From a virus, in IMG/VR virus record IMGVR_UViG_3300029235_000303: a DNA stretch of 64,000 nt; one strand, 5' to 3'. The notes beneath the pieces were generated by a model, which worked only from the letters and a program-made list of their open reading frames with translations, made no database searches and had not been told where the DNA came from. Both the position numbers and the translations under genes were made by a program. Positions 5,888 to 43,293 of the stretch are shown one piece after another; positions within the stretch are counted from its first letter, which is position 1; each line of letters opens with the position of its first letter.

Positions 5888-6577
5888 ATGGAATTACGGA
5901 ATAATTGGTACAAAGCAGACAAGGGAAAACATTTTGTACTTACAGAAAAAGGCAAAGAAGAGTGTGCAAGTTACAAGCATAAAACAGTTGGTGAGCCTGT
6001 AGATGAATATGATTATGAAGCAACCGAATGGTCAGTTGATAAAGGTTATGTAATCGAAACTGATATTCCAGGATGGATAAAAGGACTCAAAGGATATAAA
6101 GTTGTGTATTATCACAAAGGAAAATATAGATTATCAGCAGGTAATCCGCAAATCTTCCCAACACGCAAAGCAGCAGAAGTTTATAAAAAGCATTATGAAT
6201 CATATACATGGTTCAATGATACCTTGGTAATTGAAGAAGTCGAATATGATGGTGTTCCATTAAGTGAATCTAAAATGTACAACGGAAAGGAAATTGTAGA
6301 TAAAGAACATTACTTTGGACTTGATGCACATGAAGTTGGTGAGTATTTCACAGAGGATATGATTGATTCCTTTATGGATTTATTACCACCAACTTGTATG
6401 AGAAGTGATTGTTTACAGATTGGCGAGCCATGTTCAAGCAGAATTGATGAAAACGGAGAGAGCAGAACAACATATTCCACATTTAAAAAGGTAGATGAAG
6501 GAATTTGGGAATACTGTGGTGATTGTTTTAGAGGTGAAAATTATATGCATGGAAAAGATATTCCATATGTGAGATAA
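5888..6577 (+). CDS. hypothetical protein with C-terminal Cys cluster
   Basis: GAGAGGAAATGAATT then ATG; 229 aa. Confidence 0.45.
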   Translation: MELRNNWYKADKGKHFVLTEKGKEECASYKHKTVGEPVDEYDYEATEWSVDKGYVIETDIPGWIKGLKGYKVVYYHKGKYRLSAGNPQIFPTRKAAEVYKKHYESYTWFNDTLVIEEVEYDGVPLSESKMYNGKEIVDKEHYFGLDAHEVGEYFTEDMIDSFMDLLPPTCMRSDCLQIGEPCSSRIDENGESRTTYSTFKKVDEGIWEYCGDCFRGENYMHGKDIPYVR

Positions 6578-26458: not shown

Positions 26459-26496
26459 AAAGGACGATACAGATTAATTTGTGTCGTCCTTATTCT
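26459..26496. terminator. bidirectional terminator hairpin between integrase and repressor
   Basis: AAGGACGATACA ... TGTGTCGTCCTT (11/12 bp) between convergent genes. Confidence 0.5.
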
Positions 26497-26743: not shown

Positions 26744-26819
26744 GAATGTAATCCTCCTATATACATAGAGTACCATATATAAAAGAAAAAATAAATATAA
26801 AAAATAATTGTAATAATAC

Positions 26820-26848
26820 TTGACAATATATATAGTGAAGTATATAAT
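26820..26848 (+). promoter_or_regulatory. consensus sigma-A-type promoter (TTGACA-17-TATAAT)
   Basis: TTGACA at 26820-26825, 17-nt spacer, TATAAT at 26843-26848, about 45 nt upstream of the mazF-like GTG. Confidence 0.6.
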
Positions 26849-26891
26849 ACAAAATATCAAAGGAACAAACAGAGAAAGGAGGGCTAACATA

Positions 26892-27242
26892 GTGGAAATT
26901 AAACGTGGTGAAATATATTTCGCTGATATAACTAAATATGATTCTAAAGGTTCAGAACAGAGTGGTAGAAGACCAGTACTGATATTGCAGAATGATATTG
27001 GCAATAAGTTTAGCCCTACCACTATAATTGCCATCATAACAACAAAATCTAAAAGGGAATTGCCAACACATGTAGAAATACATAAGAACAAGCTTAATGG
27101 GTTGAAATATGATTCTGTTGTGGCATTAGAGCAGATTTCGACAATTGATAAAGATAGGATTCAATTTAAAATTGGTGAATTATCTGCTGAAGATAATTTA
27201 AAGGTTATGGAAGCAATGAAAATTAGTTTGGCTATGATATAA
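26892..27242 (+). CDS. mazF: MazF/PemK/EndoA-family endoribonuclease toxin
   Basis: AGAAAGGAGGGCTAACATA then GTG. ...IKRGEIYFADI...GSEQSGRRPVLILQNDIGNKFSPTTIIAIIT...LPTHVEI... is nearly collinear with the B. subtilis EndoA (NdoA) motifs as recalled. No MazE-like gene upstream. Confidence 0.75.
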   Translation: MEIKRGEIYFADITKYDSKGSEQSGRRPVLILQNDIGNKFSPTTIIAIITTKSKRELPTHVEIHKNKLNGLKYDSVVALEQISTIDKDRIQFKIGELSAEDNLKVMEAMKISLAMI

Positions 27243-27260
27243 GAGTGAGGAGAGAACATT

Positions 27261-27557
27261 ATGAAGACAGAAACTTATGATTACGCAAGTATAGATGAAG
27301 CAATTGAAAGATTACAAAAGTTAAAAGCTGAAGGTAAAAATCCTAAAAATGTTGTTATATTAACAATGGATTTTGATAATAATACCTCTTCAAAGAAAAT
27401 CACAACTCCTGATGATGGATGTTTATTAGTAAGAAAATCAAAAACAATTATTGTGAACGAAGATGCTTATATCCCTCATATGCAGCTATTCAATACCGAA
27501 CAGGATATAGAGAATATTATTAAAAGAGGAATTATGCATGACATTCTGTTAAGATAA
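27261..27557 (+). CDS. hypothetical protein (possible cognate antitoxin or partner)
   Basis: GAGTGAGGAGAGAACATT then ATG, 18 nt after the toxin stop. Confidence 0.4.
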   Translation: MKTETYDYASIDEAIERLQKLKAEGKNPKNVVILTMDFDNNTSSKKITTPDDGCLLVRKSKTIIVNEDAYIPHMQLFNTEQDIENIIKRGIMHDILLR

Positions 27558-27585: not shown

Positions 27586-27614
27586 TTGACACAAACGTAT
27601 GTTTGGAGTAATAT
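27586..27614 (+). promoter_or_regulatory. sigma-A-like promoter (TTGACA-17-TAATAT)
   Basis: TTGACA at 27586-27591, 17-nt spacer, TAATAT (or TATAAT with a 20-nt spacer). Confidence 0.45.
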
Positions 27615-27636
27615 AATGGAAGAGGAAATAAAAAAT

Positions 27637-27671
27637 GCTTGACTAGAAAGTTGGCAGCTGGCTAGTCAAGC
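27637..27671. promoter_or_regulatory. 10-bp perfect inverted repeat (operator-like)
   Basis: GCTTGACTAG-N15-CTAGTCAAGC, centred on CAGCTG, just downstream of the promoter; no T tract follows. Confidence 0.4.
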
Positions 27672-27861
27672 AACATACAAAGTCTATTTCTTGGGGAAAT
27701 AATCAGTATGCATTCAAATTATACATAGTAATAGTTATAAAAGTCAATTGCATATCAGCAAAATTTCCAATTTTTTATCACAATTTAATAGCATTTTTAA
27801 TTTTTCTTTGGTATTTCCAAGGCTTATTAAAGTGCGCTAAAAATCAGAGAGGAGTGTTGTT

Positions 27862-31419: not shown

Positions 31420-31578
31420 TGCCGGCATTTTTTATATTAGTCATTATAGGAATGATAATTTTATGGTTTCTACTGTCGCCTCTATTTTCAAAAATTGGTG
31501 AGTTTGTTACCAATATTATAAATAGGGTATTTTCGACAAATGAAATAAATAATGATAACGAAGAAAAGGAGACAAAGT
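31420..31578 (+). CDS. small membrane protein (about 52 aa)
   Basis: ATG next to the previous stop; hydrophobic N-terminus. Coordinates ±2. Confidence 0.3.
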
Positions 31579-32446
31579 GATGAAAAAAACAAAGAAAATT
31601 GGAGGAATTATAACAGTAGGTGTAATTGTTATTGTTGCAATACTATTGTTAATATCAAGTGTACGTGTGCCTGCTGGCTATATTGCCGTTCAGTACAGTA
31701 TGTCGGGTGGAGTAAAAGGCGATATTCTTACACAAGGATGGCATTTAAAGTCACCAACTGTAAAAACGACACTTTACTCGGTGAGTCTTGAACAGAGTTA
31801 TTTAACGTCTGGCAAGGACGGAGACTCTAAAGATGATGACAGCTTTTCAGCAAGTTCATCTGAAGGTAAGGCTATGCAGATAGATCTTACTTTTACATAT
31901 CAGTATAGTCCTGATAAGGTAGCTGATTTATTTACAAGATTCAGAGGTCAGTCTGGTAAGGAAGTAAGAGATAGTTTCATCAAACCAAACATTATTAGCT
32001 GGACTAAGGAAGTTGTTGCAAATTATAAGGTATCAGACATTCTTGGTTCTGAGAGAGCAAACGTTAATACAGCATTAACTGATTATCTTAATAAGAAGTT
32101 TGAACCTTATGGAATTGCAATTAGCAATGTATCATTAATTAACATTTCTGTGGATGAGAAGACACAAGAAGCTATTAATGCAAAGATTACAGCACAGCAG
32201 GCAGCCGAAACTCAGGAAATTAACAATCAGACAGCTATTAATAAGGCAAAGGCAGATGCAGAAGTAACTAAGGCAGAAGCAAAGGCTAAAGCTGATGCAC
32301 AGCTCATAGAAGCTCAGGCACAGGCAGAAGCTAACAGTAAATTAAGTTCTTCAATCACTGATGAACTTATAAGAATGAAGGAAGCAGAAGCAAGAGTTGA
32401 ACATGGCTGGGTCGAAATTCAGGGTGTCAATACTGTAGTTAAGTAA
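31577..32446 (+). CDS. SPFH/band-7 (prohibitin/HflC-like) domain protein
   Basis: N-terminal TM, then ...VRVPAGYIAVQYSMSGGVKGDILTQGWHLKSP... and an Ala/Gln/Glu-rich coiled-coil C-terminus. Less AT-skewed codons than neighbours. Confidence 0.65.
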   Translation: MMKKTKKIGGIITVGVIVIVAILLLISSVRVPAGYIAVQYSMSGGVKGDILTQGWHLKSPTVKTTLYSVSLEQSYLTSGKDGDSKDDDSFSASSSEGKAMQIDLTFTYQYSPDKVADLFTRFRGQSGKEVRDSFIKPNIISWTKEVVANYKVSDILGSERANVNTALTDYLNKKFEPYGIAISNVSLINISVDEKTQEAINAKITAQQAAETQEINNQTAINKAKADAEVTKAEAKAKADAQLIEAQAQAEANSKLSSSITDELIRMKEAEARVEHGWVEIQGVNTVVK

Positions 32447-32487
32447 TTATAAAGTAAATAAGGGTGTGGTGAAATTCCGCACCTGAC

Positions 32488-32565
32488 AATGGGCTGTGGT
32501 GAAGTGGTCAACACAACAGATTTTGATTCTGTCATTCGTGAGTTCAAGTCCCACCAGCCTAGTCT
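32488..32565 (+). other. tRNA-like element (imperfect; candidate tRNA-Gln UUG-like or att-site fragment)
   Basis: Perfect anticodon-arm-like hairpin ACAGA-TTTTGAT-TCTGT, canonical T-loop GTGAG-TTCAAGT-CCCAC, and acceptor-like pairing TGGGCTG/CAGCCTA, but no clean D-arm. A GC-rich island with atypical codons; 5' segment duplicated as GGGTGTGGTGAA / GGGCTGTGGTGAA. Confidence 0.3.
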
Positions 32566-38636: not shown

Positions 38637-39623
38637 TTGACAGAGAATAAAGAAAAAAATAATTATTGTGAGTTAAATGTATTAAGTTTATGCGATGGTA
38701 TGTCATGTGGACACATTGCATTAGAGAAAGCAGGATTTAATGTTGGTAAATATTTTGCATCAGAGATTAAGGACGTGGCAATTAAGGTAACAAGAGACAA
38801 CTATCCTGAAACAATTCACATTGGAGATGTGAACAAGATTACATATAAAGATGGTGTATTACATACAGAAGTCGGAGACTTTGAAACAGATATTGATATT
38901 GTAATGTTTGGTAGTCCTTGTCAGAGTTTTTCAAGAGCAATGATTAAAGAGAGAAAGATTGGTCTTGAAGATCCAGAACGTTCAGGTCTGTTTTATGAGT
39001 GCAATAGAGTATTGAAAGAAGTAAATCCAAAGTATTTCCTTATGGAAAATGTAGTGATGAAACCTGAAGATGAAGCCGTTATTAGTGAAATGATGGGAGT
39101 AAAACCTATCAGAATCAATTCTTCTCTTGTAGTAGGACAGCTTAGAGATAGATATTATTGGACTAATATTCCAGGAGTAACAGTTCCAGAAGATAAAGGA
39201 GTTACTTTACAAAGTGTACTCAATGATGGATATGTACCAAACGAGAAAGCAAAATGCCTTTGCAAGAATGATTCTCACGGATATTACAACGGCTGTTTTT
39301 GGACACCAATTAAGAGGTTTCACAGATTCTATTATAAGTCGTTTGGAACAATGGTGTTCCCATCGAAAGAGTATTTTGATAACTGTTTAGAGGTTACAAA
39401 GAGAATATTAGATGGAAGAAAATCTTCTGCAAAAATCTATGATGATTACAATGGTCATGATTTTGATGAAGCAAGATATTTATGGAAAGAAGAGAGAGCA
39501 AGATTGCAAGGAGTTCCAGAAGAATATGTAGAAAATATGACTGAAAAAGATGCGGCAGATGTTCTTGGTGATGGTTGGACTGTACCTGTAATCGCACACA
39601 TTTTCAGTTTTATGAAATTTTAA
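38637..39623 (+). CDS. DNA (cytosine-5)-methyltransferase
   Basis: Motif I LSLCDGMSCGHIAL, motif IV GSPCQSFS (PCQ), motif VI LMENVV. TTG start after AAAGGA. Confidence 0.8.
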   Translation: MTENKEKNNYCELNVLSLCDGMSCGHIALEKAGFNVGKYFASEIKDVAIKVTRDNYPETIHIGDVNKITYKDGVLHTEVGDFETDIDIVMFGSPCQSFSRAMIKERKIGLEDPERSGLFYECNRVLKEVNPKYFLMENVVMKPEDEAVISEMMGVKPIRINSSLVVGQLRDRYYWTNIPGVTVPEDKGVTLQSVLNDGYVPNEKAKCLCKNDSHGYYNGCFWTPIKRFHRFYYKSFGTMVFPSKEYFDNCLEVTKRILDGRKSSAKIYDDYNGHDFDEARYLWKEERARLQGVPEEYVENMTEKDAADVLGDGWTVPVIAHIFSFMKF

Positions 39624-42417: not shown

Positions 42418-43293
42418 ATGTTAGAGATTAACAAAATATACAATGAAGATTGCCTTGAAGGTATGAAAAAGATTGATGATAAATCGGTCGATTTCATCTT
42501 CACAGATCCACCTTATAATACGACTAATAATTCTTGGGAATGTGAAATGCCGTTAAATGATTATGTCGAGTTATCAGGACAATATTTCTATGAAACAGAT
42601 CTATTTAATTTGGCTCAAGTAACAAATAGTAGTCTTGAGTATACAAGAGATTGGTTTTATGAGAACAAAAAAGATGGTTTATGGACTCATTACAATCGAA
42701 TTATCAAAGATAATGGTTGCATTGCATTATGGGCGCAATCACCATTTGATAAGAGGCTCGCTTGTAGTAATGAAAAGCTATATCGCTATGAATGGATTAT
42801 CGAAAAGACCAAAGCAACTGGTCATCTAAATGCAAAGAAAATGCCTATGAAGGCACACGAAAATGTCTTGATTTTCTATAAGAAACTCCCTACATATAAT
42901 CCACAAATGACAGAAGGACATACGCCTGTTCATTCTTATACAAAGCATACGACAGATGGTAACTGTTATGGTGCTACAAAGACTGGTATTTCAGGTGGTG
43001 GCAGTACACAAAGATATCCAAGAGATGTTCTGCAGTTCAAGTGGGATACTCAGAAAAGTAGCTTACATCAGTGCCAAAAGCTTGTTGAAGCGTGTGAGTA
43101 TTTTATTAAGACATATACCAATCAAGGAGATTTAGTTCTTGATTCATGTGCAGGAAGTTGTACAACTGCAATTGCAGCTTTAAATACAGGTAGAAATTAC
43201 ATATGTTTTGAGAAAGATAAGGATATTTTTGAGGTTGGAAGTAAGAGAGTAGCTGAATATGCTAATCAAGATTTGTTGATGAGTGCTACATAA
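42418..43293 (+). CDS. DNA methyltransferase, N6-adenine/N4-cytosine (beta class, DPPY)
   Basis: N-terminal ...IYNEDCLEGMKKIDDKSVDFIFTDPPY... and C-terminal ...GDLVLDSCAGSCTTAIAA... (FxGxG SAM motif) in beta-class order. Confidence 0.8.
   Translation: MLEINKIYNEDCLEGMKKIDDKSVDFIFTDPPYNTTNNSWECEMPLNDYVELSGQYFYETDLFNLAQVTNSSLEYTRDWFYENKKDGLWTHYNRIIKDNGCIALWAQSPFDKRLACSNEKLYRYEWIIEKTKATGHLNAKKMPMKAHENVLIFYKKLPTYNPQMTEGHTPVHSYTKHTTDGNCYGATKTGISGGGSTQRYPRDVLQFKWDTQKSSLHQCQKLVEACEYFIKTYTNQGDLVLDSCAGSCTTAIAALNTGRNYICFEKDKDIFEVGSKRVAEYANQDLLMSAT

Follow-up and report, generated by a model that had tools for sequence, protein, structure and literature searches.

Introduction

Known protein partners of MazF toxins are MazE-type antitoxins encoded upstream or mimics of MazE. 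In B. subtilis, the pair is formed by EndoA (MazF/YdcE) and EndoAI (MazE/YdcD; PDB 4ME7, 4MDX). In the operons higBA, mqsRA and hicAB, the toxin is encoded ahead of its antitoxin. In omega-epsilon-zeta of pSM19035, the antitoxin is folded and has no DNA-binding function, and a separate small repressor controls transcription; PaaA2 also has no DNA-binding domain. T4 RegB is an early phage endoribonuclease that is related to a toxin-antitoxin (TA) toxin fold and is used in phage development. Here, a mazF gene, the gene p98 behind it and the divergent repressor gene in front of it were analysed in IMG/VR virus record IMGVR_UViG_3300029235_000303. The window, i.e. the whole stretch of DNA that was analysed, comprises 64 kb of a phage genome of ~155 kb, and window-wide searches cover those 64 kb.

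Two described phage systems are closest to this locus in their setting. The module paaR2-paaA2-parE2 is described as a TA system with a separate CI-like repressor and comes from the immunity region of prophage CP-933P of E. coli O157:H7 (PMC8630535). In phage phi3T, EndoA-type MazF activity tilts the decision toward lysogeny, and the MazF-binding phage proteins AimX and YosL permit lysis (PMC10769878). Nothing relevant on a reverse-order MazF was found in the searched literature corpus.

As read from the sequence, mazF-p98 is probably (estimated probability roughly 0.55) a toxin-first module in which p98 would act as an inhibitor without DNA binding and transcription would be left to the immunity repressor of the phage. 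The toxin family is known. The apparent novelties are a protein family that is always found with MazF, the reversed gene order and the control by an exchangeable immunity cassette.

The toxin and its downstream partner

The 116-amino acid (aa) product had been described in advance as an EndoA/MazF-type protein, with membership of a non-toxin PemK-fold family as the outcome that would speak against it. It matched Pfam PF02452 (PemK_toxin) with 106.3 bits (cut-off 23.1) over residues 4–112 of 116, PHROG 1936 'MazF-like growth inhibitor' with E=1e-30, and B. subtilis EndoA (PDB 4me7, 4mdx; phmmer) with E=5e-31 over residues 2–116, at 58% identity. R27 and T50 align with the catalytic Arg25 and Thr48 of EndoA, and the GSEQ, RPVL, QNDIGN, PTH and LEQ motifs are present. 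For conservation analysis, 11 MazFs paired with a p98-family gene (30–85% identity to the window MazF) and B. subtilis EndoA were aligned. R27 was invariant in these 12 sequences, as were Q23, P28, Q33, N34, G37, N38, T59, H60, S75 and E80; T50 was at least 90% conserved. The catalytic Arg is kept in every p98-partnered MazF. Judged by these matches, the protein is a genuine EndoA/MazF-type family member with intact catalytic residues. The window allele of mazF starts with GTG, and most related alleles have ATG at the same position; the GTG may lower the ratio of toxin to partner translation.

No match to p98 was obtained in the Pfam, NCBIfam, PHROG and PADLOC libraries. When 1.84 billion representative proteins were searched with a profile, only 62 p98 clusters were obtained, nearly all of 90–105 aa, and 61 close homologues were found. 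Alignment of 15 homologues with 52–94% identity gave 18 invariant columns, and conservation was highest in the C-terminal third (H73, Q81, G90 and an MHDI motif). This pattern clearly points to a real gene under purifying selection.

The 98-aa gene had been named as the only candidate partner of the toxin, and inspection of homologous phages for a conserved gene pair had been proposed. Such a pair was found throughout. A PemK_toxin gene lay directly upstream in all 10 family members checked for context (22–61% identity to p98). Among ~145 fetched loci, every p98-family match not cut by a contig end had MazF upstream at a gap of −13 to +29 nucleotides (nt), and this adjacency held down to ~20% identity. 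In four loci (L134–L137), MazF was only 40% identical and was followed by a gene for 91–93 aa without BLASTP similarity to p98. These genes were assigned to the p98 family because a hidden Markov model built without them recognised them with E ~1e-14. The pair was kept beside a divergent XRE regulator, beside one of the ribbon-helix-helix (RHH)/Arc type, or without any regulator. Pairwise distances of MazF and p98 correlated across 15 lineages (Mantel r=0.68, p=2e-4), as would be expected of co-inherited partners; this is no proof of contact. The arrangement is that of reverse-order TA systems, with the toxin first, the partner second and tight spacing (18 nt here).

The structure of p98 was predicted with AlphaFold2 from a 55-sequence alignment (predicted local distance difference test, pLDDT, 90.8; predicted template modelling score, pTM, 0.83). 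The predicted fold is a compact alpha/beta fold of six strands and two helices. The model had no significant match in the PDB, and a BFVD search returned only its own family. Comparison with RHH, AbrB, Phd/YefM and helix-turn-helix (HTH) families gave no match, and no similarity to MazE was seen. By analogy of form, and without assigning it to either class, p98 would be closer to a folded immunity protein than to a partly disordered classical antitoxin.

Absence of MazE

That the toxin lacks a MazE in the usual upstream position was confirmed. The 148 bp between the XRE gene and mazF (26744–26891) carry only a promoter and a leader, and the next gene upstream is divergent, which leaves no upstream co-transcribed antitoxin of the RHH or AbrB type as in canonical mazEF. 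A tblastn search of the window with B. subtilis EndoAI/MazE, at full length and with the C-terminal half, gave noise only (best E=3.4), and a MazE hidden elsewhere in the 64 kb was thereby ruled out. An autoregulating DNA-binding antitoxin was not found either, p98 having no DNA-binding match in Pfam or NCBIfam, and the promoter is exchanged together with the XRE cassette, not together with mazF-p98. The operon is not a canonical mazEF.

Phage MazFs that are 43–54% identical and have neither an upstream MazE nor a p98-family partner were encountered in loci L125, L128, L129, L130, L132 and L133 and in phages PMBT24 (L001) and Perkons (L002). Several of them are flanked by a sigma-like gene and an open reading frame (ORF) of ~540–555 aa, and a gene of ~50 aa lies downstream. 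A 4-nt overlap with the MazF stop was seen for a 77-aa gene in L132. Phages of Firmicutes may commonly carry MazF genes that have no MazE or that have a non-canonical partner.

In an alternative that we regard as unlikely, MazF would have no protein antitoxin and would be controlled by transcription only, acting as an unrestrained early host-shutoff RNase with a role like that of T4 RegB; p98 would then be a non-inhibitory specificity or targeting cofactor or an early effector. Such a role would be in line with a promoter that is part of the repressor cassette (see below), with the lack of resemblance of p98 to known antitoxins, be it in sequence or in fold, with the MazFs of PMBT24, Perkons and L125–L133, which do without MazE and p98, and with the placement of MazF-like proteins under host takeover in PHROG. 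RacR/YdaS, reported as a repressor-controlled prophage 'toxin' (PMC5700373), would be a comparable case; in a later paper, YdaS/YdaT is disputed as a TA system (PMC8630535). Against this alternative stands the frequency of UACAU on the phage sense strand, which was 123 observed versus 107 expected (expectation from a maximal-order Markov model; UACAU at rank 961 among the 1024 pentamers), on the assumption that the window MazF shares the cleavage specificity of EndoA. An uninhibited EndoA-like enzyme would cut, and thus damage, the phage messages, and since the motif is not depleted, a co-expressed inhibitor would be needed. Under the same assumption, a host-shutoff weapon operating beside motif-free phage transcripts was rejected in its simple form. 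The spacing of −13 to +29 nt and the strict co-occurrence down to ~20% identity are, moreover, typical of interacting pairs.

A promoter exchanged together with the repressor

The promoter in front of mazF is the sole 12/12 match to TTGACA-17-TATAAT in the window. The 170 nt upstream of mazF were compared in 27 distinct variants. The leader, which extends from directly behind the −10 as far as the start codon, was conserved with mazF. The −10, the spacer, the −35, the rest of the intergenic DNA and the repressor gene changed as one block with the repressor allele, the boundary of the swap lying just 3' of the −10. Clustering gave seven repressor types and seven promoter-region types that mapped almost 1:1, with the exception of four loci in repressor cluster 3 that carry promoter type 0. 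Each cassette has a −35/17-nt/−10 promoter at a constant distance from the leader. Position and conservation across seven cassettes, not the match alone, thus support a promoter function. In otherwise near-identical phages, the window XRE was replaced by at least six other repressor types. The repressor types found beside near-identical MazFs are 70–100 aa long and shared <40% or no detectable identity.

On the comparison of these sequences, the swapped repressor and promoter form the pattern of classic phage heteroimmunity. Given the co-exchange, the promoter would be a binding site of the XRE protein, which is probably the prophage immunity repressor. The idea that the toxin promoter is under control of the phage repressor therefore gains from the comparison, as promoter and repressor types are exchanged together while leader, mazF and p98 stay constant. 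MazF and p98 are 82–100% identical across the seven immunity types (p98, 87–100%), and neither is therefore a Cro-like operator-binding protein. For p98, a Cro-like role was rejected as the protein does not change with the immunity type.

All seven repressor types end in KDDT(K/N) or KDDAK (KDDTN in the window XRE). This tail is encoded by the stem (26474–26491) of the terminator-like hairpin between int and XRE. The hairpin has the T-rich tail ATTCTTACTT and was called as a terminator on the + strand only, with none on the minus strand. The immunity cassette has its left recombination boundary here, which explains the common ends of otherwise unrelated repressors.

Cassette-specific repeats were found that overlap the −35/−10 in several cassettes. 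The L011 cassette contains AATCTATATAAATATTG twice, the L028 cassette three exact copies of TTAAGATATAT plus variants, and the L023 cassette AAGTTGATTA in direct and inverted orientation. The excess over shuffled sequences was clear in L011 (25; shuffle mean 4.3, maximum 13) and marginal in L023 (15; shuffle mean 3.6, maximum 14). Repeats in L028 (51; shuffle maximum 52) and L013 (13; shuffle maximum 15) were not above shuffles. The palindrome over the −35 of the window has 17-nt arms that are 88% complementary and is a candidate operator only. The check for an operator near the promoter that had been suggested thus came out in part: a candidate palindrome is present and repeats exceed shuffles in L011 and, marginally, in L023, but repeats in the window are at chance.

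Given the variety of repressors, head-to-head pairing with the XRE protein itself as the MazF antitoxin is very improbable. HTH-type antitoxins do pair with various toxin folds in type II systems, and the XRE protein has a weak match to the HTH domain of the PezA antitoxin (25 bits versus a cut-off of 290). However, near-identical MazFs lie beside the diverged or unrelated repressors described above, whose only common segment is the C-terminal KDDT(K/N) derived from the terminator stem, and some relatives have RHH regulators or none. The XRE protein as a specific protein antitoxin was rejected, with seven unrelated repressor types beside the same MazF.

The module could also be an ordinary addiction or anti-phage TA that is expressed in the lysogen, with XRE as its dedicated regulator in the manner of omega-epsilon-zeta or paaR2-paaA2-parE2 and not as the master repressor of the phage, and that stabilises the prophage or aborts superinfection. 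This is considered quite improbable. Accessory genes are commonly found beside the integrase, and a small divergent regulator is present in nearly all contexts. Addictive TA modules have been described from prophage immunity regions (paaR2-paaA2-parE2; PMC8630535), and host MazEF is described in PMC10769878 as a domesticated phage-defence mechanism. A regulator specific to the TA should, however, remain linked to the TA genes, whereas at least seven unrelated regulator specificities, each with matching promoter/operator DNA, were found beside constant TA genes. In addition, the pair lies on the strand opposite the repressor and faces the sigma-like gene cluster, no PADLOC defence-system model matches MazF or p98, and the pair of L157 has no divergent regulator at all.

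Reverse-order TA and repressor-controlled toxin had been put forward as alternatives. The findings suggest that both apply at once, in a three-component logic: the apparent components are a regulator of the XRE or RHH type, MazF, and p98, in which no DNA-binding signatures are seen, and regulator and promoter are linked by their co-exchange. The regulator is not part of the same operon as in known three-component TAs, being divergent and on the opposite strand, and is absent in L157. An internal mazF promoter for p98 alone (27145–27172, 10/12) was considered; promoter-like matches in the region are at chance (21 versus 26 expected). A UACAU lies between the Shine-Dalgarno sequence and the AUG of the window XRE mRNA. 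As a MazF target in this leader it was taken as chance, since it is not kept in an 87%-identical allele.

Proposed mechanism

In the proposed toxin-first module, mazF-p98 would be a two-gene operon whose MazF acts as an EndoA-type mRNA endoribonuclease. The small, folded p98 would neutralise MazF, most likely by direct binding, and would represent an immunity protein or antitoxin of a new family. As p98 has no recognisable DNA-binding domain, the module could not autoregulate like mazEF, and the divergent XRE repressor would take over transcription control. XRE gene, operators and near-consensus promoter would form one exchangeable immunity cassette. In the lysogen, the promoter would be held off; it would fire on induction or upon fresh infection. 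mazF-p98 would then be the first early transcript upon derepression, in the cro position of lambdoid phages, and a sigma-like gene cluster follows downstream. With the toxin translated first and the inhibitor accumulating later, a brief self-limiting RNase pulse would result, which may serve host takeover or influence the lysis-lysogeny outcome while later phage messages are spared. MazF toxicity, binding and neutralisation by p98, binding of the XRE protein at the promoter, expression timing and biological role are all inferred here, as are timing and purpose of the pulse. A role related to the switch is plausible, as MazF activity steers lysis-lysogeny in phi3T (PMC10769878).

Several points weigh against the proposed module. 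A 12/12 promoter occurred by chance in 17 of 100 shuffles (expected number 0.18), and operator-like repeats in the window's own cassette were not above shuffles. The phages in which the pair was seen are all related and belong to one broad lineage, in which sigma-like and DUF262 genes follow downstream, and this shared descent partly explains the adjacency and the Mantel correlation. Within the close family, MazF and p98 alleles recombine freely, and signs of co-adaptation at a fine scale are not seen. The compact, well-folded structure predicted for p98 differs from classical antitoxins, which are labile and in part disordered. The p98 family is only mildly acidic (median pI 6.2); charge mimicry by p98 was uninformative for this reason. 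Finally, the UACAU count bears on the window MazF to the extent that this enzyme cleaves like EndoA.

In a bolder form, which is tentative and rather unlikely as it stands, MazF and its dedicated non-MazE inhibitor would be working parts of a genetic switch at the cro position, with an RNase pulse whose length is set by accumulation or decay of p98 and which decides or locks lysis-lysogeny at the post-transcriptional level. If true, the locus would be a self-contained counterpart of the hijacking of host MazEF by phi3T through AimX and YosL, and p98 would define a structural class of MazF inhibitor that is new and to date known from the present lineage of uncultivated prophages only.

Candidate small RNA downstream of p98

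A candidate small RNA of ~84 nt was found on the minus strand, 70–150 nt downstream of p98. Its promoter (TTGACT-18-TATAAT, 27747–27718) converges on the mazF-p98 unit and forms a convergent pair with the + strand promoter at 27586–27614. The latter precedes a gene termed p222 and the sigma-like gene and marks the downstream limit of the mazF-p98 unit. The RNA comprises two hairpins, one of them at 27671–27637, followed by a U-run terminator, and folds with −24.4 kcal/mol (z=−5.0). Both promoters, the stem and the T-run are conserved in 15 distinct relatives. No Rfam family matches the RNA, which would lie cis-antisense to the p222/sigma-like operon leader.

Being conserved and well folding, this RNA would be the obvious candidate if an RNA antitoxin of type I or III controlled MazF. 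This explanation is held to be highly unlikely. No ToxI-like tandem repeats were found, complementarity of the RNA to the mazF-p98 mRNA did not reach 12 nt, no promoter above chance was detected antisense to mazF, and it is the leader of the following operon, not mazF, that the RNA overlaps. An RNA antitoxin was rejected on the absence of repeats and complementarity.

Among the relatives, the 15-nt loop of the hairpin at 27637–27671 occurs in both orientations on an invariant 10-bp stem (window, L123, L105, L096, L109, L117). One form reads AAAGTTGG(C/T)AGCTGG and the other is its exact reverse complement, CCAGCTACCAACTTT; flipped loops were seen on different flanking backgrounds. A 15-bp segment flanked by inverted repeats thus seems to have flipped repeatedly, by quasi-palindrome template switching or by recombination.

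Feature coordinates and prophage setting

All coordinates of the preliminary description agreed with a re-reading of sequence and ORFs (Table 1), and independent gene callers predicted the same 89-, 116- and 98-aa products on public contigs.

Table 1. Features of the mazF-p98 locus and of other genes in the 64-kb window.
Feature	Position	Strand	Remarks
Integrase, tyrosine recombinase, 329 aa	25464..26453	+	Pfam Phage_integrase, E=9e-29
Hairpin between convergent int and XRE genes	26460..26491	+ (terminator call)	14-pair stem
XRE-family HTH repressor, 89 aa	26474..26743	-	Pfam HTH_26, E=1e-17; HTH_3, E=4e-11; also matched by PHROG transcriptional repressor families; start codon 26743–26741, stop ends at 26474; divergent from mazF
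Candidate operator, imperfect palindrome ATACTTGACAATATATATAGTGAAGTAT	26816..26843		Spans −35 hexamer and spacer
Sigma-70-type promoter TTGACA-17-TATAAT, 12/12	26820..26848	+	Part of immunity cassette; −35 TTGACA 26820–26825, −10 TATAAT 26843–26848, 17-nt spacer
Conserved 5' leader, first part of constant mazF module	26855..26891	+	Kept in 27 distinct upstream variants; transcription probably starts near 26855; Shine-Dalgarno AAGGAGG of mazF at 26876–26882
mazF, EndoA/MazF/PemK family, 116 aa, GTG start	26892..27242	+	PF02452, E=1.2e-30; stop codon 27240–27242
mazF-p98 spacer, 18 nt	27243..27260	+	From sequence; Shine-Dalgarno GAGGAG at 27247–27252
p98, 98 aa, undescribed family	27261..27557	+	18 nt past mazF stop, same frame
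Second rightward promoter-like site TTGACA-17-TAATAT	27586..27614	+	Conserved in 15 distinct variants
Candidate small RNA, ~84 nt	27628..27747	-	Promoter, hairpin, U-run
Sigma-like/DUF262 protein, 740 aa	28726..30948		Sigma-70-like N-terminus (regions 2, 4) fused to DUF262/GmrSD_N (ParB-like nuclease)
SPFH/Band 7 protein, 289 aa, then tRNA-Gln(UUG)	31577..32562		tRNA at 32490..32562
DNA methyltransferases (two)	38637..39623 and 42418..43293		One C-5 cytosine, one N6/N4
ORF of 432 aa	55895..57193		OrfB_IS605 and Cas12f1-like TNB domains; TnpB-type transposon nuclease in a phage genome

The window has 31% G+C, and nearly all genes lie on the + strand. The locus was found on 64 distinct contigs in IMG/VR, from a few kb to 217 kb in length and many of 146–167 kb. 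In a public assembly collection, 759 indexed blocks contain p98 in its exact sequence, and the contigs named for it are mostly from human-gut metagenomes. Many p98 contigs span 0.2 to >1 Mb with the locus 95–200 kb from the contig ends, and the element is therefore an integrated prophage, very common in the human gut. One metagenome-assembled genome (MAG) carrying the locus is labelled Lachnospira eligens; the host is assigned from this label only. Searches of 50,697 GenBank phage records gave no match for p98 (tblastn) or for the window DNA (megablast), and tblastn of p98 against PLSDB plasmids was also without a match. The sole match in a collection of species-representative genomes was L146 (CALBXN010000010.1), a 66-kb contig binned as 'uncultured Treponema sp.' that carries MazF with a 54%-identical p98. 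It may be a phage contig mis-binned into a Treponema MAG.

The integrase gene is mosaic, with 38–100% identity among relatives. The sigma-like and DUF262 parts, which are fused in the window, are separate adjacent genes in several related phages; the corresponding loci were located at 5925–8140 in L135, 2528–4591 in L147 and 2714–3916 in L157. The two methyltransferases suggest anti-restriction self-modification.

Should p98 inhibit MazF, this would be a new way of MazF inhibition and, within the searched literature, the first toxin-first MazF module. Through its placement, the module would couple an mRNA interferase directly to the genetic switch of a phage; such a coupling has hitherto been demonstrated for host-encoded MazF in phi3T only. 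As the element is very common, its regulation may affect prophage induction in a prevalent gut commensal. With three small genes and one 148-bp control region, the locus is a compact, testable system.

Comparison with known systems

In regulatory logic, the locus is closest to three-component TAs, especially to paaR2-paaA2-parE2. Like paaR2-paaA2-parE2 (PMC8630535), the putative TA module mazF-p98 lies in a prophage immunity region with a separate repressor, but paaR2-paaA2-parE2 is co-transcribed with its repressor on the lysogenic side, whereas mazF-p98 is divergent and on the cro side. The toxin there is ParE and the antitoxin gene comes before the toxin gene; here, the toxin is MazF and comes first. 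The omega-epsilon-zeta system would share the combination of a folded antitoxin without DNA binding, as predicted for p98, and a separate repressor. It differs by its regulator in the same operon, a kinase-type toxin, the order antitoxin before toxin, and the lack of a phage immunity context. Toxin-first order is shared with higBA, mqsRA and hicAB, the antitoxins of which are autoregulating HTH proteins, whereas p98 has no detectable DNA-binding domain.

T4 RegB is RelE/YoeB-like and has no dedicated inhibitor gene, and T4 is virulent. Phages phi3T/SPbeta neutralise an EndoA-type MazF by the small proteins AimX and YosL (PMC10769878), a role that p98 may share. In that case, however, MazF is the host's and the inhibitors mimic the C-terminal region of MazE, whereas here the phage encodes its own MazF and p98 has no similarity to MazE.

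The toxin itself is closest to EndoA, to which it is similar over its full length, with the Arg25/Thr48 equivalents and RNA-groove motifs kept. Unlike endoAI-endoA, the window contains no upstream RHH MazE and no sequence resembling the C-terminal helix of MazE, and its promoter lies outside the TA module. In place of an upstream MazE-type antitoxin, the putative partner p98 is encoded downstream, is unrelated in sequence and is predicted to be globular, with a six-strand alpha/beta fold and no RHH domain.

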